Origin: an uncultured Opitutales bacterium
Lineage (GTDB): Bacteria > Verrucomicrobiota > Verrucomicrobiia > Opitutales > Intestinicryptomonadaceae
Length of the DNA: 32,000 nt
Assembly: GCA_934660865.1 (NCBI GenBank)
Contig: CAKUIA010000002.1
Span: 157,893 to 189,892, forward strand
Direction: 5' to 3'
Position numbers and translations under genes: made by a program
Shown: positions 5,715 through 32,000 of the stretch, in pieces
Numbering within the stretch: position 1 is the stretch's first letter
How the letters are laid out: each line of letters begins with the position of its first letter
Notes under the pieces: model-generated
The model's input: the letters and a program-made list of their open reading frames with translations, nothing else
Database searches by the model: none
Told to the model about the DNA's origin: nothing

Positions 5715-5760
5715 AAAAAAAATCCGCAACCGAAATGCCCGGTTGCGGATTTTTGTTTTT
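5715..5760. terminator. Bidirectional rho-independent terminator between convergent rhaB and proA
   Basis: An 11-bp stem pairs ATCCGCAACCG (5722-5732) with CGGTTGCGGAT (5740-5750). An A8 run lies upstream and T-runs lie downstream. Confidence 0.75.
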
Positions 5761-15570: not shown

Positions 15571-15602
15571 AAAAAACTTCGGCATTTGTCCGAAGTTTTT
15601 TT
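15571..15602. terminator. Bidirectional rho-independent terminator between convergent lysS and the porin gene
   Basis: AAAAAACTTCGG (15571-15582) pairs with CCGAAGTTTTTT (15590-15601) around a 7-nt loop. The A and T arms allow it to function on both strands. Confidence 0.65.
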
Positions 15603-18474: not shown

Positions 18475-19476
18475 CTAGTTGAAAAACTTTTCGGCTTCAA
18501 AGCGCGAAATGTTGCGCATATTAACATAGCGGCTTTTTAAAAGCATTTGGTTGCTGTGCCCCATATTTAGCTGCAGACGCGGCAGGTCTTTAAAGCGCTT
18601 GGCAAAAAAGCTGGCAAACGTGTGCCTAAGCACATCGGCTTGCCACGGCAATGCGTTGCGGCTAAAACCGCTGCTTTGCCTTATGTTTTGCCAACGGCGC
18701 TCCCAGTTTTTTGGGCATATTTTGCCCGAACCTATTGTTTTGCTTAAAATGCGCTTTAGCTGCGGCATAATTTCCACTTGGCGCACCCCGCCTGTTTTAG
18801 AACACAGCGAGCGCACAGTTATTGTGTTTTCCTGCAAATCAATATCTTGCCAAGTTAGCCGCCTAACTTCGCGCGGGCGTATTCCCGCATATATCAAAAG
18901 GGCAACGGCTGGCAGGCAAATGCCACCGCACTCGCTTTTTGCAACTTCTATAAGCCGCCTTATTTGGCTTAGTTTTAGCGGCAAAATTTCCTTTTCAATA
19001 ACGCGCCGTTTTTCGATGTGCTTTATGGGGTTTTTGTCGCACCAGTTGTAGCGCACTGCAAATTCAAATAGGGCGTGCAGCATACTCCTTGCCTTGTTTT
19101 GCTGGCTTGGTGTGCTAAAGGCGCAGCTTAGCCACGCTTCGCATTCCGACACACTAAGTTGCGAAAAATTGCGATTGGCAAGTTCGGAGTTGGCTTTAAT
19201 CAGCCTATTGCCTATGCAGCGAATGTCTCGCAAAGAGTCTTTGCGCAAGTGCTTTTTGCTTTCGTAATAAATTGCAAAACCCCGGTTAAAAGGCATTTCG
19301 TTTGCCCTTATGTTGCGAAGGCCAACTTCAATAACTTTTAAAACAAATTGCGCGTCGGTTAAATTGCAGTTTTTGGGCTTCGCGTCTAAAATATTTCTGA
19401 CAAATCTTGCCGCGTCTAACGCAGAAACATTTGCACCGTTTAACACCTCTTTTATCAATAGTTCCATTTTGTCCAT
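18475..19476 (-). CDS. Tyrosine site-specific recombinase (phage-integrase family)
   Basis: The C-terminal catalytic domain has Arg-I in LLIYAGIRPREVRRLTWQDI, the box II block DVLRHTFASFF, and GHSNQMLLKSRYVNM supplying His-III and the Tyr nucleophile. By hand alignment the usual His of HxxR is Asp. Sampled GC is host-like. The start codon (19476-19474) overlaps the left inverted repeat. Confidence 0.85.
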   Translation of the reverse strand: MDKMELLIKEVLNGANVSALDAARFVRNILDAKPKNCNLTDAQFVLKVIEVGLRNIRANEMPFNRGFAIYYESKKHLRKDSLRDIRCIGNRLIKANSELANRNFSQLSVSECEAWLSCAFSTPSQQNKARSMLHALFEFAVRYNWCDKNPIKHIEKRRVIEKEILPLKLSQIRRLIEVAKSECGGICLPAVALLIYAGIRPREVRRLTWQDIDLQENTITVRSLCSKTGGVRQVEIMPQLKRILSKTIGSGKICPKNWERRWQNIRQSSGFSRNALPWQADVLRHTFASFFAKRFKDLPRLQLNMGHSNQMLLKSRYVNMRNISRFEAEKFFN

Positions 19477-19490
19477 CGTATTTAAAATAC
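19475..19490. repeat. Left inverted repeat (IRL) ATCGTATTTAAAATAC
   Basis: It is the exact reverse complement of 19653-19668. It contains the near-palindrome CGTATTT-A-AAATACG. Confidence 0.9.
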
Positions 19491-19652
19491 GAATGTCAAA
19501 TATAAATTCAAAAGATTGTTTGAATTATTTGCATAAAATAACTTACGCAAAATCAGCTGAACGGTTGGAACAGATTTTAAAACAATTTCTTTGCAACGCA
19601 AAATATATAATATTGTGTTTTTCAAAAGCTTGCAACAAAGCAAATGCCTATA

Positions 19653-19668
19653 GTATTTTAAATACGAT
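19653..19668. repeat. Right inverted repeat (IRR) GTATTTTAAATACGAT
   Basis: It is the exact reverse complement of 19475-19490 and ends 25 nt upstream of the ATG at 19694. Confidence 0.9.
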
Positions 19669-19693
19669 AGGCTTCCCTTAAATTTTAATCGTA

Positions 19694-20458
19694 ATGACGT
19701 ATGGCGTTTTTTTAGAGGAAGTGAATTCTATGCTTTCAAAATTTCCCGAAAGCAAGTTGCTTGTCCCCACATTGGGAGGGAGATCTTTGTTCTTGATTTA
19801 TGTGGAAAATGGCAAGTTAAAGATAGTAAATTCGAAAGGCAAAACATACGCTTTCACCGATAAGGAATACAATGCCATACAAAAGCGGTTTGTAGAATCG
19901 CCCGCTTTTGTCGCATTTAAAACTTGCAACTATACAAAAACAACAAATGCGGGGTGTATCGGCTGGACAACCCAAAACGGCAATAAAAATTGGATTTATT
20001 GGGGTTATTTGCCCGCTGTATTTCGCGAATTATATGCGCGCAATGAAATGTGCATAGGCAATTCTTATTTATACAACTCCCCCGATATGCGCTCGTATAC
20101 GGCTGTTGAGTGGAAAGACTTTCTCTCCTACATAAAAATTAGAGATATAATAAGCTCTATCTCGTATAACGATATTAATTTCGACAAAAAAGTTGAACTT
20201 TCGTCTTTTTTAAACGCCAAAAAAAAGGTTTGTGATTTTTTTGTAGGCAATAATTGGGGCATACATTGTGTCCTTTGGAGCAATATTGCAGACACCGTTG
20301 AGGACGAAACTTTGCGCTATATAGTTTTAATTATTTTAAAATGGCTTAGGAAAGAAATCATTAAGTGTTTTAAAAAATGGAAAGACAAAAAAGGAAAAAA
20401 TAAGTACCCGCGCCGCAACTGCAACAAATGCCCGCGCAACAAAAATTATAAACATTAA
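19694..20458 (+). CDS. Hypothetical protein (no recognisable domain; Trp/Tyr-rich core, Lys/Arg-rich C-terminal tail with CNKC)
   Basis: This is a 254-aa ORF and the first gene after the IR-flanked segment, 12 nt upstream of the next gene. An alternative start at 19730 has an AGAGGA about 10 nt upstream. Sampled GC is about 37%. Confidence 0.5.
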   Translation: MTYGVFLEEVNSMLSKFPESKLLVPTLGGRSLFLIYVENGKLKIVNSKGKTYAFTDKEYNAIQKRFVESPAFVAFKTCNYTKTTNAGCIGWTTQNGNKNWIYWGYLPAVFRELYARNEMCIGNSYLYNSPDMRSYTAVEWKDFLSYIKIRDIISSISYNDINFDKKVELSSFLNAKKKVCDFFVGNNWGIHCVLWSNIADTVEDETLRYIVLIILKWLRKEIIKCFKKWKDKKGKNKYPRRNCNKCPRNKNYKH

Positions 20459-20470
20459 AATTTTGTATTT

Positions 20471-22945
20471 ATGAAAAAATATATATTAACATTATCTTTC
20501 TTGGCGGCAGGAGTAATCTTTGCCGACAACGACATTCATACCGGCGAACTTAGCGGAAACTATTCGGGGGCTAGCCACGTTGATTCCGTTTGGGAAAATA
20601 CCTACGTTAAAGATGGAGAAAAGGTTATTTTTTCAACTCCCATAAAAAAAACAGACTATACTCGTGCAAATTTTGCAGACGCGAATCTAACCTCAGCGGC
20701 TTTTGATGGCGCAACATTGACAAATACAGATTTTACTAATGCAAACCTTTCCTCTGTGTCTTTTGGAGATGCAGTACTAAGAAATGCAAATTTTACAAGG
20801 GCAAATCTAACCTCGGCATCCTTTTTTTATGTATTAATGGATGAAGATAATGACATAGAACGTGGTGCGACATTGGAGAATGCGAATTTCACAGATGCGA
20901 TAGTCAAAAAGACCGATTTTTCGATGACCGTATCATGCGGATTTACAGAAGCACAGTTGAAATCCACGAAGAGCTATAAAGAAAAAGATTTAAGTGAAAT
21001 ATCTCTTGGTAATAACGATTTGAGTGGATGGGATTTTAGTGAACAGAATCTAACCTCGGCGGGGTTTTGGTGGTCAACATTGACAAATGCGAATTTTGCG
21101 GGGGCGAATCTAACCTCGGCGAGTTTTTCCGGTTCATTGACAAATGCGAATTTTACGAATGCTACAATTAAAGATGCAGGCTTTTCTGGTACTGTATCAC
21201 ATGGATTTACAGAAGCGCAGTTGAAATCCACGAAGAGCTATAAAGAAAAAGATTTAAGTGGAATATCTCTTGGTAGTAACGATTTAAGTGGATGGGATTT
21301 TAATGAACAGAATTTAACCTCGGCGGAGTTTGCCGGTTCAACATTGACAAATACGAATTTTACGAATGCTACAGTTAAAGAGGTTAATTTTATTGGGACC
21401 GTATCATGCGGATTTACAGAAGCACAGTTGAAATCCACGAAGAGCTATAAAGAAAAAGATTTAGGTGGAATACATCTTGATAGTAACGATTTAAGTGAGT
21501 GGGATTTTAGCGGTCAGAACCTAACCTCGGCGGGGTTTGAATTTGCGACATTGACAAACGCGAATTTTGCGGGGGCGAATTTAACCTCGGTGAATTTTTT
21601 CTCTTCAACATTGACAAATGCGAATTTTACGGGTGCTACGATTAAAGGCGCACGCTTTCAGCATGCTGTATCACGCGGATTTACGGAATCGCAGTTGAAA
21701 TCCACGAAGAGCTATAAAGAAAAAGATTTAAGTGGAATAGATCTTAGCAGTAGCGATTTGAGTGGATGGGATTTTAATGAACAGAATTTAACCTCGGCGA
21801 GTTTTTGCTTTTCAACATTGACAAATGCGAATTTTGCGGGGGCGAATTTAACCTCGGTGAATTTCGTAGATACGATAGTCAAAAAGGCCGATTTTTCGAT
21901 GACTGTATCACGCGGATTTACAGAAGCGCAGTTGAAATCCACGAAGAGCTATAAAGAAAAAGATTTAAGTGGAATAGATCTTAGCAATAGCGATTTGAGT
22001 GGATGGGATTTTAATGAACAGAATTTAACCTCGGCGAGTTTTTGCTTTTCAACATTGACAAATGCGAATTTTGCGGGGGCGAATTTAACCTCGGTGAATT
22101 TCGTAGATACGATAGTCAAAAAGGCCGATTTTTCGATGACTGTATCACGCGGATTTACAGAAGCGCAGTTGAAAACCACAACGAGCTATAAAGAAAAAGA
22201 TTTAAGTGGAATAAATCTTAGTAGTAACGATTTGAGCGGATGGGATTTTAGTGAACAGAATCTAACCTCGGCGAATTTTTACGATACCACATTGACGAAC
22301 GCGGATTTTACTAGCACAGACCTGCGCGGGGCTACACTTACCAACATAGACGGCACGCCGATTTACAAAAACACCATTATGACAGACGGTGTCATAAAAA
22401 ACTTTTCGATAACTTCGGCGGCAGATAACCTTACAATTCACAAATACACACCTGCAACTAGCGGCGGAGAAATTATTAGCGCAAAAGTTTCCGAAAGCCA
22501 CGCAACGGTTTCGGGAGGAGCAACACTTAAGTTAGATACAGGAGCGCAACTAGATATTGTAAACAAAAAGATGCTTATCATAGCCCAAGACGGCGCGCTT
22601 ATTATTGACACCTCTATAAGCGATCCAACGCAAATTTATGTAGAATCTTTGGCGGGATTATTGGTTATAGGCAGCAATTTTACCGTAAACATAACCGAAA
22701 GTCTTTTAGACAACGTTGAATACAAGTTCGACTTAATTTCGTTTGAAGACGGCGCTAATATAGACATTCCCGAAGAATGTGTATCGCTTACCGTAATGGG
22801 CGAAACTTTTAACGGAACTTGGAGTTGTGTTAAGGGCGAAAACACATTCAGCATAATTGCAACGCAAGTTCCGGAGCCCGCAACTGTTGCCGCAATCTTC
22901 GGCGCGCTTGCGTTGGCATTGGCGGTTTACAAACGCAAAAAATAA
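20471..22945 (+). CDS. Secreted pentapeptide-repeat protein with a C-terminal PEP-CTERM sorting signal
   Basis: It has the signal peptide MKKYILTLSFLAAGVIFA. Long runs of A(N/D)LxS/F-type pentapeptides occur (ANLTSAAFDGATLTNTDFTNANLSSVSF..), and the linker GFTEAQLKSTKSYKEKDL appears six times. The C-terminus VPEPATVAAIFGALALALAVYKRKK (22868-22942) is PEP motif, TM helix and basic tail. Confidence 0.85.
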   Translation: MKKYILTLSFLAAGVIFADNDIHTGELSGNYSGASHVDSVWENTYVKDGEKVIFSTPIKKTDYTRANFADANLTSAAFDGATLTNTDFTNANLSSVSFGDAVLRNANFTRANLTSASFFYVLMDEDNDIERGATLENANFTDAIVKKTDFSMTVSCGFTEAQLKSTKSYKEKDLSEISLGNNDLSGWDFSEQNLTSAGFWWSTLTNANFAGANLTSASFSGSLTNANFTNATIKDAGFSGTVSHGFTEAQLKSTKSYKEKDLSGISLGSNDLSGWDFNEQNLTSAEFAGSTLTNTNFTNATVKEVNFIGTVSCGFTEAQLKSTKSYKEKDLGGIHLDSNDLSEWDFSGQNLTSAGFEFATLTNANFAGANLTSVNFFSSTLTNANFTGATIKGARFQHAVSRGFTESQLKSTKSYKEKDLSGIDLSSSDLSGWDFNEQNLTSASFCFSTLTNANFAGANLTSVNFVDTIVKKADFSMTVSRGFTEAQLKSTKSYKEKDLSGIDLSNSDLSGWDFNEQNLTSASFCFSTLTNANFAGANLTSVNFVDTIVKKADFSMTVSRGFTEAQLKTTTSYKEKDLSGINLSSNDLSGWDFSEQNLTSANFYDTTLTNADFTSTDLRGATLTNIDGTPIYKNTIMTDGVIKNFSITSAADNLTIHKYTPATSGGEIISAKVSESHATVSGGATLKLDTGAQLDIVNKKMLIIAQDGALIIDTSISDPTQIYVESLAGLLVIGSNFTVNITESLLDNVEYKFDLISFEDGANIDIPEECVSLTVMGETFNGTWSCVKGENTFSIIATQVPEPATVAAIFGALALALAVYKRKK
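20939..22150 (+). repeat. Intragenic tandem modules (264, 207, 267, 237 and 237 bp), each starting with GGATTTAC..(GFTEAQLK)
   Basis: Module starts were read at 20939, 21203, 21410, 21677, 21914 and 22151, all in frame. The last two full modules (21677-21913 and 21914-22150) differ at 3 of 237 nt by hand alignment. Confidence 0.9.
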
Positions 22946-22964
22946 ACAAGTTAAATAACGGCCA

Positions 22965-23762
22965 ATGCCAAAAAGCTACAAAGTGTTTGTTATAAATCTC
23001 GACAGGTCGGCTGACCGCTGGGAGAACATGCACACGCAGCTTGATAAGCTTGGCCTGCCCTACGAACGCTTTGCCGCAATAGACGGCAAGAAGTGTTCCG
23101 ACGCCTTTTTGGGCGGTTATTATTCGGCATTTTTAAACAAAAAGCGCTATTTTGCAGACTTAAGCCGCGGCGAAATTGCCTGCTACATTAGCCACTTAAA
23201 AGTGTGCCAAAAAATTGTAGATTTAAATCTCGACTACGGCATTGTTTTGGAAGACGACATCGAATTAAGCCCCCTTTTTTATGCGGTTCCCTTTGCATTA
23301 AATGCAATTAAGCGCAAATGGAGCTACATTAAATTGATTGCGCCTTTTAAGCCGAAAAAAGTACGTTCGCGCACGCCGTTTGCGGTAGAAATTCCCGCAA
23401 CTTGCACAACCGAAAAGTTCGACGGCAAAACACCGCAAAAAAGCGAAAAACAAATTTTGGCCCCCTTTGTTTTTGAATTGGTAAGTTGGAACAAGCCGCC
23501 ATGCGGCACGCAGGCCTACGCCATAACAAAAGAGGGCGCAAAAGAATTTTTGGCAAAACGCTCGCGTTTTTTCCGCCCCATAGATGTAGACTTGCAATAT
23601 ACTTGGGAAACTTTGCTAACCATAGAGGGCCTATGCCCGTTTTTATGCAAAATTAAGGAACAACATTCCGAAATTGCACGCGCAAAAAAATACCACTACC
23701 CCTTTGCACGCTTAATTTACAAAATTAGGCGCGCAATTTGTAAAAAGCACAACGCCGCGTAA
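22965..23762 (+). CDS. Glycosyltransferase family 25 (LOS/LPS beta-1,4-galactosyltransferase-like)
   Basis: The N-terminus YKVFVINLDRSADRWENMHTQLDKLGLPYERFAAIDG and GEIACYISHLKVCQKIVD..GIVLEDDIEL are typical GT25 (Lic2/LgtB/LpsA-like). Confidence 0.8.
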   Translation: MPKSYKVFVINLDRSADRWENMHTQLDKLGLPYERFAAIDGKKCSDAFLGGYYSAFLNKKRYFADLSRGEIACYISHLKVCQKIVDLNLDYGIVLEDDIELSPLFYAVPFALNAIKRKWSYIKLIAPFKPKKVRSRTPFAVEIPATCTTEKFDGKTPQKSEKQILAPFVFELVSWNKPPCGTQAYAITKEGAKEFLAKRSRFFRPIDVDLQYTWETLLTIEGLCPFLCKIKEQHSEIARAKKYHYPFARLIYKIRRAICKKHNAA

Positions 23763-25324
23763 TGAAAAACTTAAGACACAAGATTTTCGTAATAAACATG
23801 GCGCAAAGCACACAAAGGTGGAAACAAATTTCCGCACAGCTCGACAAATTGGGTCTAGTTTACGAACGGGTAGAGGGCATAGACGCCTCGAAATTGTCTG
23901 CACAGGAAATGGCTGCCTACTATTCGTTCGAAAAAAATAGAACGCAATACCCGCGCCCCTTGAAAACGGGCGAAATAGGCTGCTACATTTCGCACATAAA
24001 ATGCTGGCAAAAAATTGAAGAGGAAAACCTCGATTTTGGCGTTGTTTTGGAAGACGACATTGTTTTGTCCGACAAGTTTTCGGCAGCGATAGATTTTTTG
24101 AAAACGCATTTTTCGGAATGGAATTTTGTTCGCCTGCAGGAGGAAAACAAAAACCGAATTTTATACAACGAAAAAGTTTTTGCGGAATTTAACCTAAGGG
24201 AATTTATAAGAACATCGGGCTGCACATGGGGGTATGCGGTAAATTTATATACCGCAATGTTTTTGCGGCTTAAGTGCGTGCCGTTTGGCATTACGGTAGA
24301 TTCTGCAATGCACTTTTACCACAAGCTTAATATTAAAACCCTTTGTCTTTTCCCGCCCGTTGTATTTGCGGGCAAAAATTCAGAATCGTGCATAAACACG
24401 GGTTCAAAGAAGCCCAAAAACTTCCATGTGCTGGCACGCCCCGCATTTAGCTTTCGCTGCTATATGGGCAAGCTTTTATATTTTTTTAAGCGCGACGGCT
24501 TGCCGACATTTATAAAAAATTGTTTGCACCTAAAAAAAGAAAAGCGCTTTAACGGAAGCATTGATTTTAACGTGTTATATTGCGCAAACGAAAAATACGC
24601 AAAATTTGCCGCCGTTTGCCTTATATCTCTGCTAAAAAACAACGGCAACTACAATGTAAACGTTCATCTATTCGAGTCGGATTTTTCTGAAAGCACAAAA
24701 AGAACTTTTCTTAAAATTGCGGAAAAATTCAAAAACGCCTCCCTATATTTTTATAAAATAGATTCGGACAAATTTTCCAAGCTTGGCACCAGTGTAGGCT
24801 ATATATCCAAAGAAGGTTATTACCGTTATTTGGCGGGCGAACTTATTGTCGGCAAAGACAATGTTTTATATTTGGATTGCGACACCATTGTAAACAAAGA
24901 CATTGGCGAAATCTTTTTAACCGATTTAAACGGAAATTTTTGCGCCGCAGTTGCCGACAAATACGTTATGCGCCACCAACTGCAAAAAAAATTGGGGCTT
25001 AAGGGAAAATATTTTAACAGCGGGGTATTGTTGTTCAATTTGCCGGAAATCAGAAAAGGCAACGCGGCGAACTCGCTGCTAGAAATCTCCGCAAAAAATT
25101 CGTTCAGATTTCAAGACCAAGACGCAATCAACATAGTTTTCAACGGCAAAATCGGGGAATTGCCCGGCAAATACAACAGCGTTTCAAAATCGGCATTGGG
25201 CGCAAAAATTATACACTATGTCGGGCCAAAAAAGCCGCACAATTCCCGCGAGATAAGCATTCGCAAATTTAAATACAAAAAATACGAGCGTTTGTTTAAT
25301 TCGCTAACAAAGCAGGCAATTTAA
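23762..25324 (+). CDS. Bifunctional glycosyltransferase: N-terminal GT25 domain fused to a C-terminal GT8 domain
   Basis: Residues 1 to about 215 are GT25 (IFVINMAQSTQRWKQISAQLDKLGLVYERVEGIDA, GEIGCYISHIKCW, VVLEDDIVL). Residues about 270-520 are GT8 (YCANEKYAKFAAVCLISLL, LDCDTIVNKDI, FNSGVLLFNL, QDQDAINIVFNGKI, IIHYVGPKKP). The start overlaps the upstream stop by 1 nt (TAATG). Confidence 0.8.
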   Translation: MKNLRHKIFVINMAQSTQRWKQISAQLDKLGLVYERVEGIDASKLSAQEMAAYYSFEKNRTQYPRPLKTGEIGCYISHIKCWQKIEEENLDFGVVLEDDIVLSDKFSAAIDFLKTHFSEWNFVRLQEENKNRILYNEKVFAEFNLREFIRTSGCTWGYAVNLYTAMFLRLKCVPFGITVDSAMHFYHKLNIKTLCLFPPVVFAGKNSESCINTGSKKPKNFHVLARPAFSFRCYMGKLLYFFKRDGLPTFIKNCLHLKKEKRFNGSIDFNVLYCANEKYAKFAAVCLISLLKNNGNYNVNVHLFESDFSESTKRTFLKIAEKFKNASLYFYKIDSDKFSKLGTSVGYISKEGYYRYLAGELIVGKDNVLYLDCDTIVNKDIGEIFLTDLNGNFCAAVADKYVMRHQLQKKLGLKGKYFNSGVLLFNLPEIRKGNAANSLLEISAKNSFRFQDQDAINIVFNGKIGELPGKYNSVSKSALGAKIIHYVGPKKPHNSREISIRKFKYKKYERLFNSLTKQAI

Positions 25325-25337
25325 CAAAGGGCACAAA

Positions 25338-26099
25338 ATGGATATTTGCTATTCTACAAACGAAAGTTTTTCGCCGTATATGGCGGTTTCCATCACGTCG
25401 CTTTTGGAAAACAACGCTTCGCACAGCGTGGTTGTCCATATTTTACATTCCGATTTAAGCGAAGCTACAATCGCACGCCTGTCGAAATTCGAAACGCGCT
25501 ATAAAAACGCGAAAATAGTATTCCATAAAATAGACGATTCGCGCTTTGAAAAATTCGGGCTGACAATAAAACATATTACAAAGGAAACATATTTCCGTTA
25601 TATGATAGCCGACGTTCTACCGAATATCGACCGCGTTTTGTATTTAGACGGCGACACAATCGTAAACGGCAATATTGCCGAACTTTTCGAGACGGACTTA
25701 ACAAACTGCTATTGCGCGGGAGTAAGCGATATTTACATAGAAAGCATAGGCTATAAAAAGACGCTCGATCTAAGCGGCCTATACATAAACGCGGGGGTAA
25801 TACTCTTTAACCTCGACGAAATGCGCAAAACCGACATCGCCGAAAAGCTTTTTAAACTTACCGCCGAAAACAATTTCAAATACCAAGACCAAGACGCAAT
25901 CAACATAGCCTTCAACGGCAAAATTAAGGAGCTTGACTGCGTCTACAACTTCAAGCGCGCCCACCAAAAGGCCTTCCCCGAAAAAATTCCCTCGGCAAAA
26001 ATCGTCCACTACGTCGGGCCAAATAAACCCTGGCGAAAGTTTACATTCAACAAGCTTAAGCGACTGTATTTTAAATATCAGAGAACCTATCAATTCTAA
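25338..26099 (+). CDS. Glycosyltransferase family 8 (LPS/LOS alpha-glycosyltransferase-like)
   Basis: It carries the GT8 blocks LDGDTIVNGNI (DxD), INAGVILFNL, QDQDAINIAFNGKI and IVHYVGPNKPW. It is a paralog of the GT8 half of the preceding gene. Confidence 0.85.
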   Translation: MDICYSTNESFSPYMAVSITSLLENNASHSVVVHILHSDLSEATIARLSKFETRYKNAKIVFHKIDDSRFEKFGLTIKHITKETYFRYMIADVLPNIDRVLYLDGDTIVNGNIAELFETDLTNCYCAGVSDIYIESIGYKKTLDLSGLYINAGVILFNLDEMRKTDIAEKLFKLTAENNFKYQDQDAINIAFNGKIKELDCVYNFKRAHQKAFPEKIPSAKIVHYVGPNKPWRKFTFNKLKRLYFKYQRTYQF

Positions 26100-26103
26100 C
26101 AAT

Positions 26104-28221
26104 ATGCACACCCCCGTAAATCTTTGTTTTGCCTGCAATGACAAATATGCGCCACATATGGCTGCCGCAATAATTTCTGTACTAGAACACTTTCCACAAA
26201 AAAGAAAGCTTTCAATATATGTTTTGGCAAGCAACATTTCAGAGAAAAGTAAATCTAAGATCAACGAGATAAAAAAACTTCACGACTTTTCAATCTCGTT
26301 TATAGATGTAAACAAGAATGAATTTTCGCAATGCCCAATAACAGGGTATGTTAAATATATAACCAAAGAGACATATTATAGGTTTAAAATTCCCGCTCTA
26401 TTGAAAGATGTAGATAAGGTTTTATATTTGGATTGCGACCTTATTGCATTGGCTGATGTATCGCCGCTATTCGACTACGAATTACCCGAAAACAAATACA
26501 TAGGAATGGTACCCGACACAAGCATTTGGTGGCACCAAGATCGGTTAAAATTACCCAAAACGCAACTGTACTGCAACGCAGGAGTAATGTTGATAAACAA
26601 TAAAAAATTACGTGAAATAGGAGCAGAAAAACTGCTTTTCGGCTACACAAAATCGCCCGATAGAGAAATTCAGTTTCAAGATCAAGACGTTCTTAATATA
26701 GTATTCAGTAAAAACATAGAATATTTGCCCGTCTGTTGGAACCTTATGCATAACGCATTGCTTCAAAACGGTAGCTACAGAAACGAACAAGAAATTCAAT
26801 TACACGAGGCTATTAAAAATCCAAAAATTGTTCATTTTACAAACCCCAAGAAACCTTGGAATTTTCGATGCAACAATCCATACAAGAAAAAGTATTTGCA
26901 AGCGTTAAAGAAGACTTCTTTTACTGGAGTTTTTTTCAGATCCAAAATTTCACAAATGGCGACTTCTTTGCTTGGTGAAATATATTCTTCTAGAAAAGAT
27001 TGCTATAGAAAGACAATTAAATTATTTGGCATAACAATTAGGCGCACAAATAGGCAGATACAAATGTCGGACAAATTAACCGAAATGTCGGACAAATTAA
27101 CCGAAATGTCGGACAAATTAACCGAAATGTCGGACAAATTAACCGAAATGCCGGACAAAAATAAAGCCTTAAATGAGATACAACAAATAAATCGCCACGT
27201 CGACAATATCGTAAATTCGTATAAACATTCAAATTCAACGAAGTTTCACAACAATGAACTTCCTTATGCAATATTTGATTATGATTTTAGCGATTCTATA
27301 ACTCTATACAACGCAGGAGATTTTATTCAATCTATAGCCGTAAAAAATTTGCTACAAAAAATCAAGCCAACTTCGGATTGTGTATATATTGACAGGGAGA
27401 AACTATCGTTTGCACAAACAAAAAATCTTCTTGTTGTTATGCAGGGCTATTTTGCCCATGAACTAAATTTCTTCCCGCTTCCAAATCATCTTTCTATATA
27501 CATTGGCATTCATTTAAACAACCGCGCCAAAGCATATGTAAACGAGCTAATAAAAACGGATGCGAAAGTTTTTGAAAATAAAACGATAGGCTGTCGAGAT
27601 TTAGCAACAAAAAACTTTTTCAAAGAATGCGGAGTTGATGCATATTTGTCTAGGTGTTTAACACTCACTTTACCCAAGCGCAAAAAACTAGATACGCAAA
27701 ATAAAATATATATTGTAGACCTACCCGAAGATATAATTGAATCTATCCCTAAAGAACTAACGGAAAATGCGATAATTTACCACCAACGCGAATTGCCGCA
27801 CATAGCCTCGCGCGAGGGTCGCTTTAACAAAGCCGAAGAAATTTTAGACAATTATAGCGCAAATGCAAAATTAGTTATAACCTCCGCTTTGCATTGCGCT
27901 TCGCCATGTGTTGCAATGGGAATTCCCGTGATATTGATAAATTTGGGAAACGAAGGGGAACGCTTTACATCGTTAAAAAACATAATCCCGATTTACACAA
28001 AGCAGGACATCATTAACGGGAAAATAGATTTTTACAATGTTTCGGCGCCAGACATAGAAGACTTAAAGTCTCTTATGTATAAAAATTTGTCTTTAACAAT
28101 AAAAGACGCCATATCTGACGCAAAACAAGATTCGGACGAACTACAAGAAATCCGACAGGAAATTGAAAACTTTAAACCAAATACTTGGACAAAAAATTTG
28201 CAGCACACAAATTTTATATAA
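26104..28221 (+). CDS. Fusion protein: N-terminal GT8 glycosyltransferase, heptad-repeat linker, and C-terminal polysaccharide pyruvyl-transferase-like domain
   Basis: The ORF track starts at 25933 inside the previous gene. The ATG at 26104 (MHTPVNLCFACNDKYAPHMAAAIISVL) is the typical GT8 start. The GT8 blocks are LDCDLIALADV, CNAGVMLINN, FQDQDVLNIVF and IVHFTNPKKPW. The C-terminal roughly 330 aa (..GCRDLATKNFFKECGVDAYLSRCLTLTL.., ..AKLVITSALHCASPCVAMGIPVILI) resemble the PS_pyruv_trans family by eye. Confidence 0.7.
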   Translation: MHTPVNLCFACNDKYAPHMAAAIISVLEHFPQKRKLSIYVLASNISEKSKSKINEIKKLHDFSISFIDVNKNEFSQCPITGYVKYITKETYYRFKIPALLKDVDKVLYLDCDLIALADVSPLFDYELPENKYIGMVPDTSIWWHQDRLKLPKTQLYCNAGVMLINNKKLREIGAEKLLFGYTKSPDREIQFQDQDVLNIVFSKNIEYLPVCWNLMHNALLQNGSYRNEQEIQLHEAIKNPKIVHFTNPKKPWNFRCNNPYKKKYLQALKKTSFTGVFFRSKISQMATSLLGEIYSSRKDCYRKTIKLFGITIRRTNRQIQMSDKLTEMSDKLTEMSDKLTEMSDKLTEMPDKNKALNEIQQINRHVDNIVNSYKHSNSTKFHNNELPYAIFDYDFSDSITLYNAGDFIQSIAVKNLLQKIKPTSDCVYIDREKLSFAQTKNLLVVMQGYFAHELNFFPLPNHLSIYIGIHLNNRAKAYVNELIKTDAKVFENKTIGCRDLATKNFFKECGVDAYLSRCLTLTLPKRKKLDTQNKIYIVDLPEDIIESIPKELTENAIIYHQRELPHIASREGRFNKAEEILDNYSANAKLVITSALHCASPCVAMGIPVILINLGNEGERFTSLKNIIPIYTKQDIINGKIDFYNVSAPDIEDLKSLMYKNLSLTIKDAISDAKQDSDELQEIRQEIENFKPNTWTKNLQHTNFI
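27064..27160 (+). repeat. Perfect 21-bp tandem repeat x4 (ATGTCGGACAAATTAACCGAA, encoding MSDKLTE) plus a degenerate fifth unit
   Basis: Units lie at 27064, 27085, 27106 and 27127 and are identical. The partial unit ATGCCGGACAAAA starts at 27148. The repeat is in frame within the 26104-28221 CDS, between its two domains. Confidence 0.95.
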
Positions 28222-28261
28222 CGTTCATGACGTAATTTGTATTTTTTGAAAGGAACAAATA

Positions 28262-29224
28262 ATGGACACCGATTATCCCCCAAGAAATTTTTTGGACATA
28301 AAGTTAGGATATGCTTGTAATTTTAAATGCGAATACTGCTATCAAGTATCAGATGGAGTTCGTCAAACTGGACTTTTAAAAAAAGAGCACATAAATGCGT
28401 TATTGTCGTATTTGGACAGAACCAAACTACAGTTTTACGTAACATTGGCAGGCGGAGAGCCGTTTATTTATCCATATCTTGATTCTATTGTAGACGGACT
28501 AACTAAAAGGGGACATTCCCTTGCGATAATAACGAATTTTTCTGCAAGTGAAGATGTTTTAAAGAATTTTTTCCTAAAAACAAATGGATTTCTAAAATCT
28601 TTCTCTATATCCATACATCTAAGCCAGTGGAAAAATATTAACGATTTTTTTGATAAATTCGAAAATATAATTGCATTTGTAAAAAAAAACAAAATAGATC
28701 TTAGTATATATCCCACTTGCGTTCTTACAATCGAAAACATTGATAAGGTAAAACAGCTTCATTTAAGAATGAAGGAATATGGGTATCCATTGGAAGTTCA
28801 ACGCGTGTACTACAATGGTAAATACCAGATATATTCATCTGAAATAGAAAATTATTTTAAAGACAAAGACCTAGATGTTTTAAGCGAGAATACTGATAAC
28901 GCCAAGTTTTATGGAAATTTGTGCTATGCGGGCAGTAGGTTTTTATATGTAGAATCCAACGGGAAAATATTTCGTTGTTATACCGATCAGGAAAACGAAA
29001 AACTATACAAATTAGGCACCCTAGACAATCCGGAAAAAATTCCTGTATTAAAAAAAGCGTATCCGTGTTTAGCACACGAAAACTGTGTGTGTTTTAAACA
29101 TTTTCAACGGCAACATTTTATAACCAATAAAAAAGCCTCTTCAACTGAAATGAGTGAAGCGCTGTCATTCAACTTGTGTTTTTGCCAAAGAATTATCAAT
29201 TATTTTAAACATCTACATCAATAA
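28262..29224 (+). CDS. Radical SAM enzyme with a Cys-rich C-terminal (SPASM/twitch-like) region
   Basis: It has the CX3CX2C motif in LGYACNFKCEYCYQ and the GGE motif in LAGGEPF. C-terminal cysteines fall in CYAGSRFLYVESNGKIFRC..PCLAHENCVC. Sampled GC is about 33%. Confidence 0.85.
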   Translation: MDTDYPPRNFLDIKLGYACNFKCEYCYQVSDGVRQTGLLKKEHINALLSYLDRTKLQFYVTLAGGEPFIYPYLDSIVDGLTKRGHSLAIITNFSASEDVLKNFFLKTNGFLKSFSISIHLSQWKNINDFFDKFENIIAFVKKNKIDLSIYPTCVLTIENIDKVKQLHLRMKEYGYPLEVQRVYYNGKYQIYSSEIENYFKDKDLDVLSENTDNAKFYGNLCYAGSRFLYVESNGKIFRCYTDQENEKLYKLGTLDNPEKIPVLKKAYPCLAHENCVCFKHFQRQHFITNKKASSTEMSEALSFNLCFCQRIINYFKHLHQ

Positions 29225-29301
29225 ATAATATCGCATTTATTGCTATTAAAGAAAAATCAAGCCGACAATTATAATAAATTTAAACTTTGTTGTTTTATAA
29301 T

Positions 29302-31038
29302 ATGAAACGCTATTCTCGCTATTTAAACTACATAAAACCCAAGATTTGGCATTTGATTGGGGCGCTGTTATCTGGACTGCTGTTCGGAGCCTCGAGTGGC
29401 TTCGGTATGCCCGTTATTTTCGACAAAGTTTTGAAGCGCATTTTTATGCCCGAGAACGGCGTATCATATAACCTATGGTATGTATTCGGCGTAGCTATGC
29501 TCATTCCGTTCGTCTTTATTGTCCGTGCGATAACGGGCTATTTGAGCGGGTATTTGATGAGCTATGTTTCACTCGACGTGTTGCGCAGAATCAAGCAAGA
29601 CTTGTTTTCGCGCGTGCAAGACTACCCTCTTTCATTCTTCGACAAACACACAACTGGCGACCTCTTTGTGCGCTTGACAACCGACACCCAAGCGGTGCAG
29701 ACAATTCTGCTTTCGTTCGCCTCGGAAATGATTCGCCAGCCGGTGCAAGTAATAGGCGCGCTTTCGTTTTTGGCGTACATGTGCCTTACAAAGGGCGAGA
29801 TTGTATTTCTTTTGGTGTTCATTGCAGCCGTACCGTTTTGCATAATTCCCGTGCAGATGATGCGACGCAACCTCAAGCGCTGCGCGAAAATGTCGGCGGA
29901 GTCGCTGGGAGCGATAGCGCAGTGCTTCAACGAAAATCTCGCCGCGGCACACGAAGTACGAGTATTCAATCTCCAAGAACCACAGAAAAAAAGATTTTGG
30001 GATATGAACGTAAGCTTTCAAAAGTTAGTGCTCAAGATAACACAATACGAGCTTTTACAACAACCGATGATGGAAGTTTTGGCGGCAACAATGGTTTCTA
30101 TTACTTTTGTCTACGCATACAAGGCAAATATTGATTTTTCGACATTCGCGGCAATCGGGCTTGCGCTTTATTTTACAATCGACCCAATTAAACGAATTGT
30201 GAGAATGTGCACAGACTTTATCAAAATTACTCCGTCGTTTGATAGGTTAAATGAAATTCTCGACTATGTTTCCACCGTACCCGAAGCCGAAAACCCCGTG
30301 AAAATCGACACTTTGCGCGGCGAAATCGAATTTAAAAATGTAAACTTCGCCTATTCCGACAAAGCCGTTTTGCACAACGCAAACATAAAAATTCCCGCAG
30401 GCACGAGTTGCGCTTTGGTGGGCGAATCGGGCGCGGGCAAGAGCACGTTTGCAAAGCTTGTCATGCGCTTTTACGACCCGACCGAAGGCTCAATCACGGT
30501 TGACGGAATTAATCTCAAAGATATGTCGCTTTTCGACCTCCACAAGAACCTCGGTTCCGTACCACAGTATCCCGTGCTTTTCAACGACACAATCTACAAT
30601 AATATTTTACTAGCAAGGCCAAATGCAACCGAAGCCGAAGTACATATTGCAGCCCGCGCCGCATTCGCGCACGACTTTATTATGGAGCTGGAAAACGGCT
30701 ACAACACCCGCGTTGGTGAACGTGGCGATAGACTTTCTGGCGGACAAAAACAACGTATTGCAATAGCGCGCGTGTTCTTGAAAAACCCGCCGCTTATCGT
30801 CTTGGACGAAGCCACTTCTGCTCTCGATGTCAACAGCGAAGCCTTTATACAAAAGGCGATAGACAAACTTATGCACGACCGCACAATGTTTATAATCGCC
30901 CATCGCTTCAGCACAATCCGCAACGTGAAGAAAATCATCGTCTTCAAAGAGGGCAACCTTATAGATTTTGGCACACACACCGAACTCTACGCCCGTTGCC
31001 CCTACTATAAAACGCTTTACGACAAACAGGCAAAATAG
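29302..31038 (+). CDS. ABC half-transporter, fused TMD-NBD exporter of the MsbA/PglK type
   Basis: The N-terminal six-TM exporter domain is followed by an NBD with Walker A GESGAGKST, signature LSGGQKQRIAIARV and Walker B LIVLDEATSALD. The ORF track start at 29287 is a TTG, so the ATG at 29302 (MKRYSRYLNYIKPK) is preferred. There is no N-terminal C39 peptidase domain. Confidence 0.9.
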   Translation: MKRYSRYLNYIKPKIWHLIGALLSGLLFGASSGFGMPVIFDKVLKRIFMPENGVSYNLWYVFGVAMLIPFVFIVRAITGYLSGYLMSYVSLDVLRRIKQDLFSRVQDYPLSFFDKHTTGDLFVRLTTDTQAVQTILLSFASEMIRQPVQVIGALSFLAYMCLTKGEIVFLLVFIAAVPFCIIPVQMMRRNLKRCAKMSAESLGAIAQCFNENLAAAHEVRVFNLQEPQKKRFWDMNVSFQKLVLKITQYELLQQPMMEVLAATMVSITFVYAYKANIDFSTFAAIGLALYFTIDPIKRIVRMCTDFIKITPSFDRLNEILDYVSTVPEAENPVKIDTLRGEIEFKNVNFAYSDKAVLHNANIKIPAGTSCALVGESGAGKSTFAKLVMRFYDPTEGSITVDGINLKDMSLFDLHKNLGSVPQYPVLFNDTIYNNILLARPNATEAEVHIAARAAFAHDFIMELENGYNTRVGERGDRLSGGQKQRIAIARVFLKNPPLIVLDEATSALDVNSEAFIQKAIDKLMHDRTMFIIAHRFSTIRNVKKIIVFKEGNLIDFGTHTELYARCPYYKTLYDKQAK

Positions 31039-31211: not shown

Positions 31212-32000
31212 GTGTGGTTGGGGAAAAATACAAGCACTCTATTGCGAGCAAATTTTTTTGTGAAACAGACTTTAAATGCCGACAAAGAAAGAGACTTTTT
31301 TACGTTGATACAAATGCTGCGCAATTCTAAGTCGCTTTTATCGGTATCAAATTTTGCCGAACGGCTAACGCTTCTTAAAAGTATTGATTTTATTTAAAAG
31401 ATTTGGGGAAAGCTTAAAACCTTTAAATCTCTTTAAAATACATGAGACAAGGGGATTTTTTTGCTACAAACGTGTTTTGAAAAAAGTGCCTGCTTTTATA
31501 ATAGAAAATCGAGAGTTGGACTGAAAAACTAATCCTGCACCACAAACACAATTTTTTAAAATTTTCGGGCGCCGAAGTGGTTTTATAATACAAAAAGAGG
31601 CTTCTGAAAGTATATTGCAAGCGCCTTATTTTATGTTTATAAATGTATTGCAAATTATTTTCGGACGGCAGCATGTTCGCCATCGCCATTAGATTTGAAG
31701 AGATAAGCGAAGCCAAAATAACTTTTGTAGGCTAAATCCACAAAAATCTCGAAAAGAAATGCCAAGCATGCCAACTACAAAAAATCCATTTACAACAAAC
31801 TAGCAACCATAATACGAGCCATTGCAAAGGAGCTTCAAAATATCGCGGGTTCTTTGTCCCTTAGATTGGGTATGTCGGTGGCGCAAGATACGCGCTGATT
31901 CGGGTTTTAGTGGTTGTTGGGAACAAGACGTTTTGCGGCACACCTACGCCAGTTTTTATGCAAAGCGTTTTAAAGATTTGCCGAGGCTGCAGGTAAACAT
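31212..32000 (+). pseudogene. Degraded paralog of the 18475-19476 tyrosine recombinase, on the opposite strand, running off the window
   Basis: Frame 1 of 31861-32000 translates to LDWVCRWRKIRADSGFSGCWEQDVLRHTYASFYAKRFKDLPRLQVN. The intact copy has KNWERRWQNIRQSSGFSRNALPWQADVLRHTFASFFAKRFKDLPRLQLN. In-frame stops at 31801 and 31810 and frame changes upstream interrupt it. Weaker colinear similarity occurs further 5' (GKNTSTLLRANFFVKQTLNADK versus GANVSALDAARFVRNILDAK, starting around 31221). Confidence 0.55.

Follow-up and report, generated by a model that had tools for sequence, protein, structure and literature searches.

Does the AT-rich gap between a tyrosine recombinase gene and the neighboring surface-protein and glycan operon of an uncultured Opitutales bacterium serve as a DNA switch that exists in two orientations? 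The gap lies in a 32,000-nt stretch (positions 157,893 to 189,892 of contig CAKUIA010000002.1, hereinafter the window), for which an earlier sequence-only reading had proposed an invertible segment bracketed by an exact 16-bp inverted repeat. The current analysis indicates that this 162-bp segment is probably an invertible DNA element (inverton), with the adjacent recombinase as the likely enzyme. It appears to represent a whole family of such modules in gut Opitutales, in which each switch is located beside its own recombinase and would turn surface-protein and glycan genes on or off. The comparative evidence for a switch is strong, as this conclusion is supported by the repeat itself, by the shared architecture, by the covariation of the core sites, and by the two naturally occurring orientations.

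The two arms of the repeat, ATCGTATTTAAAATAC at positions 19475-19490 and its exact reverse complement GTATTTTAAATACGAT at positions 19653-19668, are separated by 162 nt (19491-19652), an interior that can be aligned end to end with the interiors of its close relatives. The left arm shares 2 nt with the ATG codon of the recombinase (19476-19474, minus strand), just as had been proposed, and the right arm ends 25 nt before the start, at 19694, of the first plus-strand open reading frame (ORF). The accompanying claim that such a repeat is very unlikely to arise by chance also holds. Among 150 simulated 32-kb sequences produced by a first-order Markov model of the window, just one contained a perfect 16-nt inverted repeat within 300 nt (a mean of 0.013), and simulations with the local AT-rich composition yielded such a repeat in 2 cases of 150, which corresponds to a chance expectation of ∼0.013 to 0.02 per 32 kb. 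The core pattern derived from the entire family, GTATTNNNAATAC, has two matches in the window, both of them at these arms, whereas the expected number is 0.02. Apart from this pair, the window has a single 16-nt repeat (2385/2411), presumably a terminator, which forms a tight hairpin between two convergent genes. Each arm is also nearly palindromic, TCGTATTT-N-AAATACGA, a property that the sequence-only reading had correctly pointed out, and the pair scores as an 83% direct repeat as well. The true inversion of the arms depends entirely on the asymmetric central trinucleotide, which is TAA in the recombinase-proximal site (19475-19490, with the core GTATT-TAA-AATAC at positions 19478-19490 of the plus strand) and TTA in the cargo-proximal site (19653-19668, with the core GTATT-TTA-AATAC at positions 19653-19665).

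The opposite orientation of the interior is found in a close relative. Two of the fetched loci, L004 from a Hadza gut metagenome contig and L006 from the Opitutales metagenome-assembled genome (MAG) CAKTSY01, represent the same locus in two assemblies. Its recombinase is 91% identical to the one in the window and is followed by the same GH28 and porin genes, and the two 16-bp arms of the window are present there unchanged, 161 nt apart. The interior matches that of the window from end to end at ∼90% identity but solely as the reverse complement (alignment scores of 119 to 122 for the reversed sequence versus 17 for the forward one), with the breakpoints at the cores. The window orientation is shared by L005 (76%), L009, L057 (98%), L058, and L060, and an identical copy of the region, in the same orientation, is found in the European Nucleotide Archive (ENA) contig ERZ27286925:k141_316943. 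Given that the repeats in the site pairs are 13 to 22 bp long, which is below the k-mer sizes used by assemblers (e.g., K77 in the title of the Hadza MAG), the flipped interior of a contig very probably reflects real molecules. In L017, L028, and L029, the end of the contig coincides exactly with a core boundary, which can be taken as a hint of switching within a population, and reversibility at that level would be expected of an element of this kind. The ends of the L003, L059, and L060 contigs were rejected as a switching signal: they lie 9 to 14 nt inside the interior, which is no branch-point position, and the coverage of these contigs is low. In a scan of Joint Genome Institute (JGI) metagenomes, close relatives were recovered only as fragments that do not include the switch region.

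Database searches retrieved 1355 homologs of the recombinase at E of ≤1e-5, most of them ∼64% identical to it, with 110 representatives of 50%-identity clusters at E of ≤1e-30. A scan of one genome per species revealed 45 loci, all of them in gut or rumen Opitutales; the hosts include Intestinicryptomonas porci, “Candidatus Merdousia,” Coraliomargarita sp. CAG:312, and Puniceicoccaceae Marseille-Q1082. Several copies per genome are typical, and MAG CAKTSY01 encodes at least 6 such loci. The 38 recombinase-linked loci share a common layout that consists of the core GTATT-NNN-AATAC, an interior of 139 to 166 nt, the inverted core, a single base, and the ATG codon of the recombinase. The same layout is seen in L061 and L062, whose recombinases are 44 to 45% identical. 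It is not present in subfamilies with identity of 38% or less, and the P0143 subfamily (four samples) also lacks such sites. Among the 68 fetched loci, the core pattern is essentially confined to these sites. Almost all loci with a sufficiently long upstream sequence have a gene that begins 5 to 130 nt past the distal core and points away from it. Degenerate versions of the module have also been seen: L015 has a single core, with no interior, between the recombinase ATG and the divergent gene; L018 has one core and lacks the TTGACA motif described below; and L034 lacks the core altogether.

The central trinucleotide of the core comes in at least 12 forms (TTA, TAT, ATA, CTA, TGT, CTG, CCA, ATC, CTC, CTT, ATG, and CCC, plus GGG in L061), and the trinucleotide in one arm is the reverse complement of that in the other arm in all pairs examined. 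Strand exchange by tyrosine recombinases needs homology in the asymmetric crossover region, which accounts for such a match between partner arms; two independent operators would not be matched in this way. The full site can be described as (T/C)ATn-GTATT-NNN-AATAC-nAT(A/G), with the palindrome extended on three of the four arms that flank the cores. Paralogous modules in the same genome mostly differ in the central trinucleotide, and these differences probably keep them from recombining with one another. Shared centers are usually seen in recent duplicates with 91 to 99% identity, such as L007/L008, L010/L013, L023/L026, and L030/L046, although L022 and L040 share the center despite having only 65% identity. 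Two orphan site pairs, with TTGACA-bearing interiors and no adjoining recombinase, were also found. One of them, at positions 7861-8027 of L004 (7861/8015), precedes a pentapeptide-repeat gene; the other, at positions 2463-2639 of L046 (2463/2627), is located in tandem with the recombinase-linked pair and has the variant arms GTATC/GATAC. Such pairs imply that double switches exist and that a site can be served in trans by a recombinase encoded elsewhere.

The recombinase gene itself (18475-19476, minus strand) codes for a 333-aa tyrosine recombinase (Pfam accession number PF00589, E = 1.7e-13), a putative invertase that, judging from its position, is likely the enzyme that flips the segment. 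Its closest relative of solved structure is XerA (5hxy). The residues that are invariant in the family are Arg199, Lys226, Arg283, His284, His306, and Tyr316, so that the catalytic Arg, Lys, Arg, His, and Tyr of the tyrosine recombinases are all retained. The NCBIfam models for Xer proteins score 38 to 57 bits against cutoffs of 220 to 335, far below the level of Xer and integron equivalogs. These scores, along with the presence of several paralogs per genome, each with its own paired sites in place of a single 28-bp dif site, led to the rejection of XerC/D-dif dimer resolution as the function of this protein. Its AlphaFold model has a mean predicted local distance difference test (pLDDT) score of 66 and an all-helical N-terminal half; in a model this weak, no sign was seen of a β-sheet arm-binding domain like that of the lambda integrase.

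The linkage between the recombinase gene and the site is strict, as the ATG codon is found 1 nt past the core in 36 of the 38 recombinase-linked loci; the remaining two, L030 and L046, have it inside the core. In these two (∼2963-2980), the recombinase has ACG where other loci have ATG, and the in-frame ATG is supplied by the center of the core (GTATT-ATG-AATAC), which places the start codon within the crossover region. With the start codon one base past the core and no fixed DNA upstream of it, the start signals of the recombinase have to lie in the site or in the invertible DNA, and its expression should therefore differ between the two orientations. The Shine-Dalgarno motif is missing before the recombinase gene, which is uninformative, as most genes in the window lack it as well.

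The dominant feature of the interior, absent from the sequence-only reading, is a -35-like TTGACA hexamer (19494-19499, minus strand) that is located 3 nt from the core of the recombinase-proximal site, is preceded by a T-rich UP-like tract, and faces the recombinase. With at most one mismatch, this hexamer is found at exactly the same 3-nt register, reading outward, in all 39 site pairs examined, while the interiors are otherwise unalignable beyond close relatives. It faces the recombinase in 31 of the 38 recombinase-linked loci, including the window, the cargo in 5, and both sides in 2. The cargo-facing hexamers are found in L004 and L006 (one locus in two assemblies), L017, L021, and L039, as well as in L061. 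Such preservation of the register in the two states is expected of exact site-specific inversion. The end of the interior that carries TTGACA (end A) has the T-rich, UP-element-like tract before this hexamer and a TTGAAa-like hexamer ∼13 nt further in; in the family profile, the latter appears as TTTGAA at positions -23 to -18, with 48 to 87% conservation per position. In the window, it corresponds to TTGAAT (19506-19511, minus strand), a possible second -35 element that is found 16 nt upstream of the in-core TATTTT. At the opposite end (end B), the conserved positions are TCAA at -31 to -28, T at -22, and GC.TA beside the core. The recombinase strand has four TTGNAA-type hexamers arranged in two pairs, 10 to 12 nt apart within each pair, namely, TTGCAA and TTGAAA near end B (19591-19640) and TTGAAT and TTGACA near end A (19494-19511), which could be protein-binding sites in addition to -35 elements.

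Since TTGACA is separated by just 3 nt from the 13-bp core, a -10 element matching it would have to sit just past the core, in the fixed flank. On the cargo side, the motif nAnnnT at a spacing of 16 to 18 nt is found in 22 of the 31 nonredundant loci (consensus tATAnt), compared with a background of 35% (binomial P of ∼8e-5), whereas on the recombinase side, where the consensus is cATGaA, it is found in none of the 31. In the window, the candidate -10 element is TAGGCT (19668-19673, plus strand), located in the fixed cargo flank, which would come to lie 18 nt from TTGACA after inversion. These observations suggest the following mechanism. Recombination between the two inverted core sites (GTATT-NNN-AATAC and the short arms that flank them), catalyzed by the adjacent recombinase, would flip the interior. 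In one orientation, the -35 element of end A would come to lie 16 to 18 nt from the -10-like TAnnnT of the fixed flank beside the cargo, and the cargo would be expressed, which in the window includes the PEP-CTERM pentapeptide-repeat surface protein, glycosyltransferases, a radical-SAM enzyme, and an ABC exporter. With the interior turned the other way, as it is in the assembled window, the -35 element would face the recombinase, whose flank has no -10 element, and the operon would be off or expressed at a low level. Such a promoter would be split, with the -35 and UP elements riding on the invertible segment and the -10 element fixed beside the cargo. This split promoter is the favored model; as far as motifs can tell, its polarity, with the window in the OFF state and L004/L006 in the ON state, is about evenly balanced between right and wrong. 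Genomes with multiple loci have at most one of them in the ON state (1 of the 5 scorable loci in CAKTSY01 and 1 of 3 in RGIG6690). A mostly parked family with no more than one ON locus per genome fits a repertoire that is used one at a time, which is only suggestive.

An alternative, unlikely on the current evidence, is that the segment does invert but not as a mobile promoter of the cargo. It could mainly control the recombinase itself, or carry an orientation-dependent terminator or leader, as in Clostridioides difficile, or be flanked by two outward TATTnT promoters located in the cores themselves. In 30 of the 38 loci, the core has T as its central base when read outward, which gives TATTnT; TTG-like hexamers are found 17 to 18 nt upstream of it at both ends; and the recombinase ATG, 7 to 8 nt downstream of it, would suit a leaderless mRNA that starts at or next to the ATG. 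The moderate conservation of the -10 motif in the flank would also fit a switch that does not act through a cargo promoter. However, TTGACA is found just 4 nt from TATTnT, which is too close for a -35 element, while its distance of 16 to 18 nt to the cargo flank fits well. The asymmetry of the flanks, with the -10-like hexamer in 22 of 31 cargo flanks and 0 of 31 recombinase flanks, is likewise contrary to in-core promoters, and the polarity bias of the cores is seen in only 8 of the 12 classes and could reflect common descent. Either way, whether the promoter is split or located in the cores, only end A has the promoter-like module, which in the window points at the recombinase. The promoter details offered by the sequence-only reading thus fared unevenly. 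The outward TATTnT in the sites and the TTGAAT-like hexamer at 19511-19506 have moderate support in the family, whereas TTGCAA at 19630-19635 is weakly conserved. The TATAAT at 19606-19611, said to read toward the operon, is not part of any above-chance promoter call, is patchily conserved among distant members, and was rejected as a promoter, having no -35 element at a suitable spacing. The TTGACA hexamer suggests that the promoter now points at the recombinase and not at the operon.

Several observations weigh against an inverton with a split cargo promoter. The flipped states are known between strains, species, or paralogs and could represent old fixed inversions, and in the cleanest comparison, that of the window with L004, the cargo-side flanks are nonhomologous, which makes exchange between loci possible. 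In the recombinase, as aligned with XerA, the invariant Asp280 replaces the first His of the HxxR motif of most tyrosine recombinases. On the promoter side, all the evidence for the model comes from motifs, and a generic sigma-70 scan of the region found no match in the window above shuffled expectation. The conserved A and T of the cargo flank overlap the apparent outer recombinase-binding arm (nATA, on three of the four arms), the T at position -7 of this flank is present in only about half of the loci, and TTGACA varies less than -35 elements usually do, so that it could be a protein-binding site instead. The Asp at position 280 (18637-18639 in the window, minus strand) is also invariant in subfamilies with 35 to 45% identity. 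The single minus-strand match of the sigma-70 scan, TTGCAA-17-TATTAT, did not exceed shuffled expectation and is not conserved in the family, and it was rejected.

The predicted cargo operon (19694-31038, plus strand; GC content of ∼38%) encodes an unknown 254-aa protein, a pentapeptide-repeat protein, a GT25 glycosyltransferase, GT25/GT8 and GT8 glycosyltransferases, a GT8-pyruvyl-transferase fusion, a radical-SAM enzyme, and an MsbA-like ABC exporter. The first ORF may actually start at the ATG at 19730, which follows AGAGGAAG; the leader would then extend ∼60 nt past the distal site. The 824-aa pentapeptide-repeat protein (20471-22945, plus strand) combines an N-terminal signal peptide with a C-terminal PEP-CTERM sorting signal (VPEP, a hydrophobic helix, and then KRKK) and can therefore be expected to be exported and anchored at the surface. 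In the otherwise identical ENA contig L002 (6778-9015), this protein has 745 aa, which reflects either variation in repeat number or an assembly collapse in its tandem units of ∼80 aa. Pentapeptide-repeat proteins account for 12 of the 59 cargo ORFs in the family, with 16 members in the BLAST cluster around them, and thus represent a recurring cargo. In 7 loci (L009, L013, L019, L026, L027, L041, and L058), the first cargo gene codes for a P-loop protein of ∼150 aa that has the Walker A motif GxxNSGKS and no Pfam match; in 5 of these 7, a pentapeptide-repeat protein comes next. Other cargo in the family includes GT25, PEP-CTERM, and SPFH proteins, as well as many proteins without a Pfam match. 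PADLOC found no convincing match to a defense system in the cargo. The hairpin at 2385-2426 and those at 5718-5754 and 15571-15601, perfect over 12 to 16 nt and all located between convergent genes, are probably bidirectional terminators.

The composition of this operon brings up another possibility, namely, that the recombinase is an integrase of a mobile or exchangeable island with low-GC cargo and that the sites serve for integration, excision, or exchange of the cargo. The housekeeping genes upstream (LigA, MutL, a class II aminoacyl-tRNA synthetase, porin, and GH28) have a GC content of ∼48%, and the drop to ∼38% begins at ∼19000, at the boundary between recombinase and cargo, and continues through the cargo. 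At one and the same chromosomal position, marked by the GH28-porin-recombinase gene order, the cargo is entirely different in the window, L004, and L057. The distal end of the low-GC cargo contains a 5′-truncated remnant of a paralogous recombinase, detected by tblastn (31852-31998, plus strand; residues 253 to 304, 63% identity, E = 2e-16), with in-frame stop codons just upstream and a continuation past the edge of the window. No core site was found near this remnant, which suggests a past rearrangement or replacement of cargo at such modules. The single site without an interior in L015 would also be compatible with an island. However, the window contains no tRNA genes and no third copy of the site, and its two sites are inverted, 162 bp apart, and located on the same side of the cargo, an arrangement that would lead to inversion and not to excision. 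The identical geometry at ∼40 loci and the conserved directional interior are not what an island would require, and surface-glycan loci, which are replaced by homologous recombination, normally show both low GC content and gene content that varies among strains. An island integrase is accordingly quite improbable. An integrative element or an integron was rejected, as the only two sites of the window are inverted and 162 bp apart, unlike the direct-repeat att sites that bound mobile DNA, often at a tRNA gene, or an attI with a cassette array, and as there is no tRNA gene in the window; no Rfam matches were found in the window either.

It is scarcely credible that the sites are operators at which a dimeric factor represses the divergent recombinase and cargo promoters with no rearrangement of the DNA. 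The arms are near-palindromic, form an 83% direct repeat, and coincide in part with the probable promoter and start regions of the two divergent genes. However, relatives carry the interior physically inverted, with the sites as breakpoints, which largely refutes this view. The central trinucleotide, which varies among loci and yet is reverse-complementary in each of the pairs examined, is not predicted by an operator model, and the conserved partner gene encodes a tyrosine recombinase and not a regulator. The proposal of an invertible switch between the recombinase and the surface and glycan operon is thus upheld by the inversion in L004/L006, by the occurrence of two orientations across ∼40 loci, and by the covariation of the arms.

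Opitutales are common but barely studied members of the human, pig, and ruminant gut microbiota, and in the literature searched, phase variation in Verrucomicrobia has been described for Akkermansia only. If the reading as an inverton family is correct, a single genome would carry several independently switchable surface-protein and glycan programs, which bears on immune evasion, phage resistance, and colonization. The at least 12 natural variants of the core, each paired with its own enzyme, would amount to a compact, sequence-addressable toolkit of recombinases and sites. A start codon at the crossover site and an apparently split promoter are unusual designs that would couple the state of the switch to the supply of recombinase. 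More tentatively, the recombinase may be viewed as a part of the switch, with the flipped DNA supplying its promoter and leader as a built-in, orientation-dependent autoregulation, the cargo promoter being split, the 3-nt center serving as the address of the locus that keeps 6 or more paralogous switches of one genome from recombining with each other, and the modules possibly acting as anchors for the exchange of cargo.

The invertons of Akkermansia muciniphila are the nearest described relative of the Opitutales element. Verrucomicrobia have been credited with the most intergenic invertons per genome, a figure that comes from Akkermansia alone (PMC10028968). These invertons have the motif CGGATT..AATCCG and control, among others, the cps1 capsule (PMC13343947, citing Jiang et al. 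2019). They appear as “group 138” in PMC11892184, and in one example given there, 17-bp repeats enclose a 158-bp interior (2092093-2092109-2092267-2092283). In both cases, the hosts are gut members of the phylum Verrucomicrobiota, there are many copies per genome beside surface or capsule genes, and palindrome-like repeats of ∼16 to 17 bp with a variable center (xxATT-N2/3-AATxx) flank an interior of ∼158 to 162 bp. In contrast to Akkermansia, the elements described here have the site GTATT-NNN-AATAC, belong to a different order, the Opitutales, and have their own recombinase, with the core-abutting ATG, at almost every inverton. No link between the two was found: the Akkermansia-type site, GGATTNNAATCC, is absent from all 68 fetched loci, and the likeness consists of the geometry and the form of the site. 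The literature searched yielded no recombinase assigned to the Akkermansia invertons and no paper on phase variation in Opitutales.

Bacteroides thetaiotaomicron has five invertible promoters of capsular polysaccharide (CPS) loci (PMC10028968). Like the Opitutales modules, Bacteroides CPS and surface loci are present in several phase-variable copies per genome, and each operon is headed by a short promoter segment enclosed by repeats. In B. thetaiotaomicron, tyrosine recombinase genes are located beside the invertible CPS promoters. In contrast to the Opitutales module, the Bacteroides element contains the promoter in full, which is of the Bacteroidetes TAnnTTTG type, the recombinase genes have their own upstream regions, and both the sequences and the recombinase subfamily are unrelated. 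Bacteroides fragilis differs further in using one global serine invertase (Mpi) for most of its loci, along with Tsr tyrosine recombinases. The fimS switch of E. coli, served by FimB and FimE, also combines a short invertible promoter segment with adjacent tyrosine recombinases and control of a surface structure, and the expression of fimE depends on the orientation of the switch. However, fimS is 314 bp long with 9-bp repeats, contains a complete promoter, has the recombinase genes upstream under their own promoters, is found at a single locus per genome, and shows no sequence similarity to the Opitutales element. In the mpl (P35) family of Mycoplasma penetrans, many surface-protein paralogs each have their own invertible promoter, which measures ∼135 bp, has 12-bp repeats, and is inverted by a tyrosine recombinase. 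Unlike in Opitutales, one or two recombinases act there in trans on all the promoters, with none fused to each switch, and the host belongs to another phylum. The Opitutales modules thus share their logic with fimS, the Bacteroides CPS promoters, and mpl. What sets them apart is that the recombinase gene starts at the site of crossover, that the promoter appears to be split, and that the crossover trinucleotide is specific to the locus.

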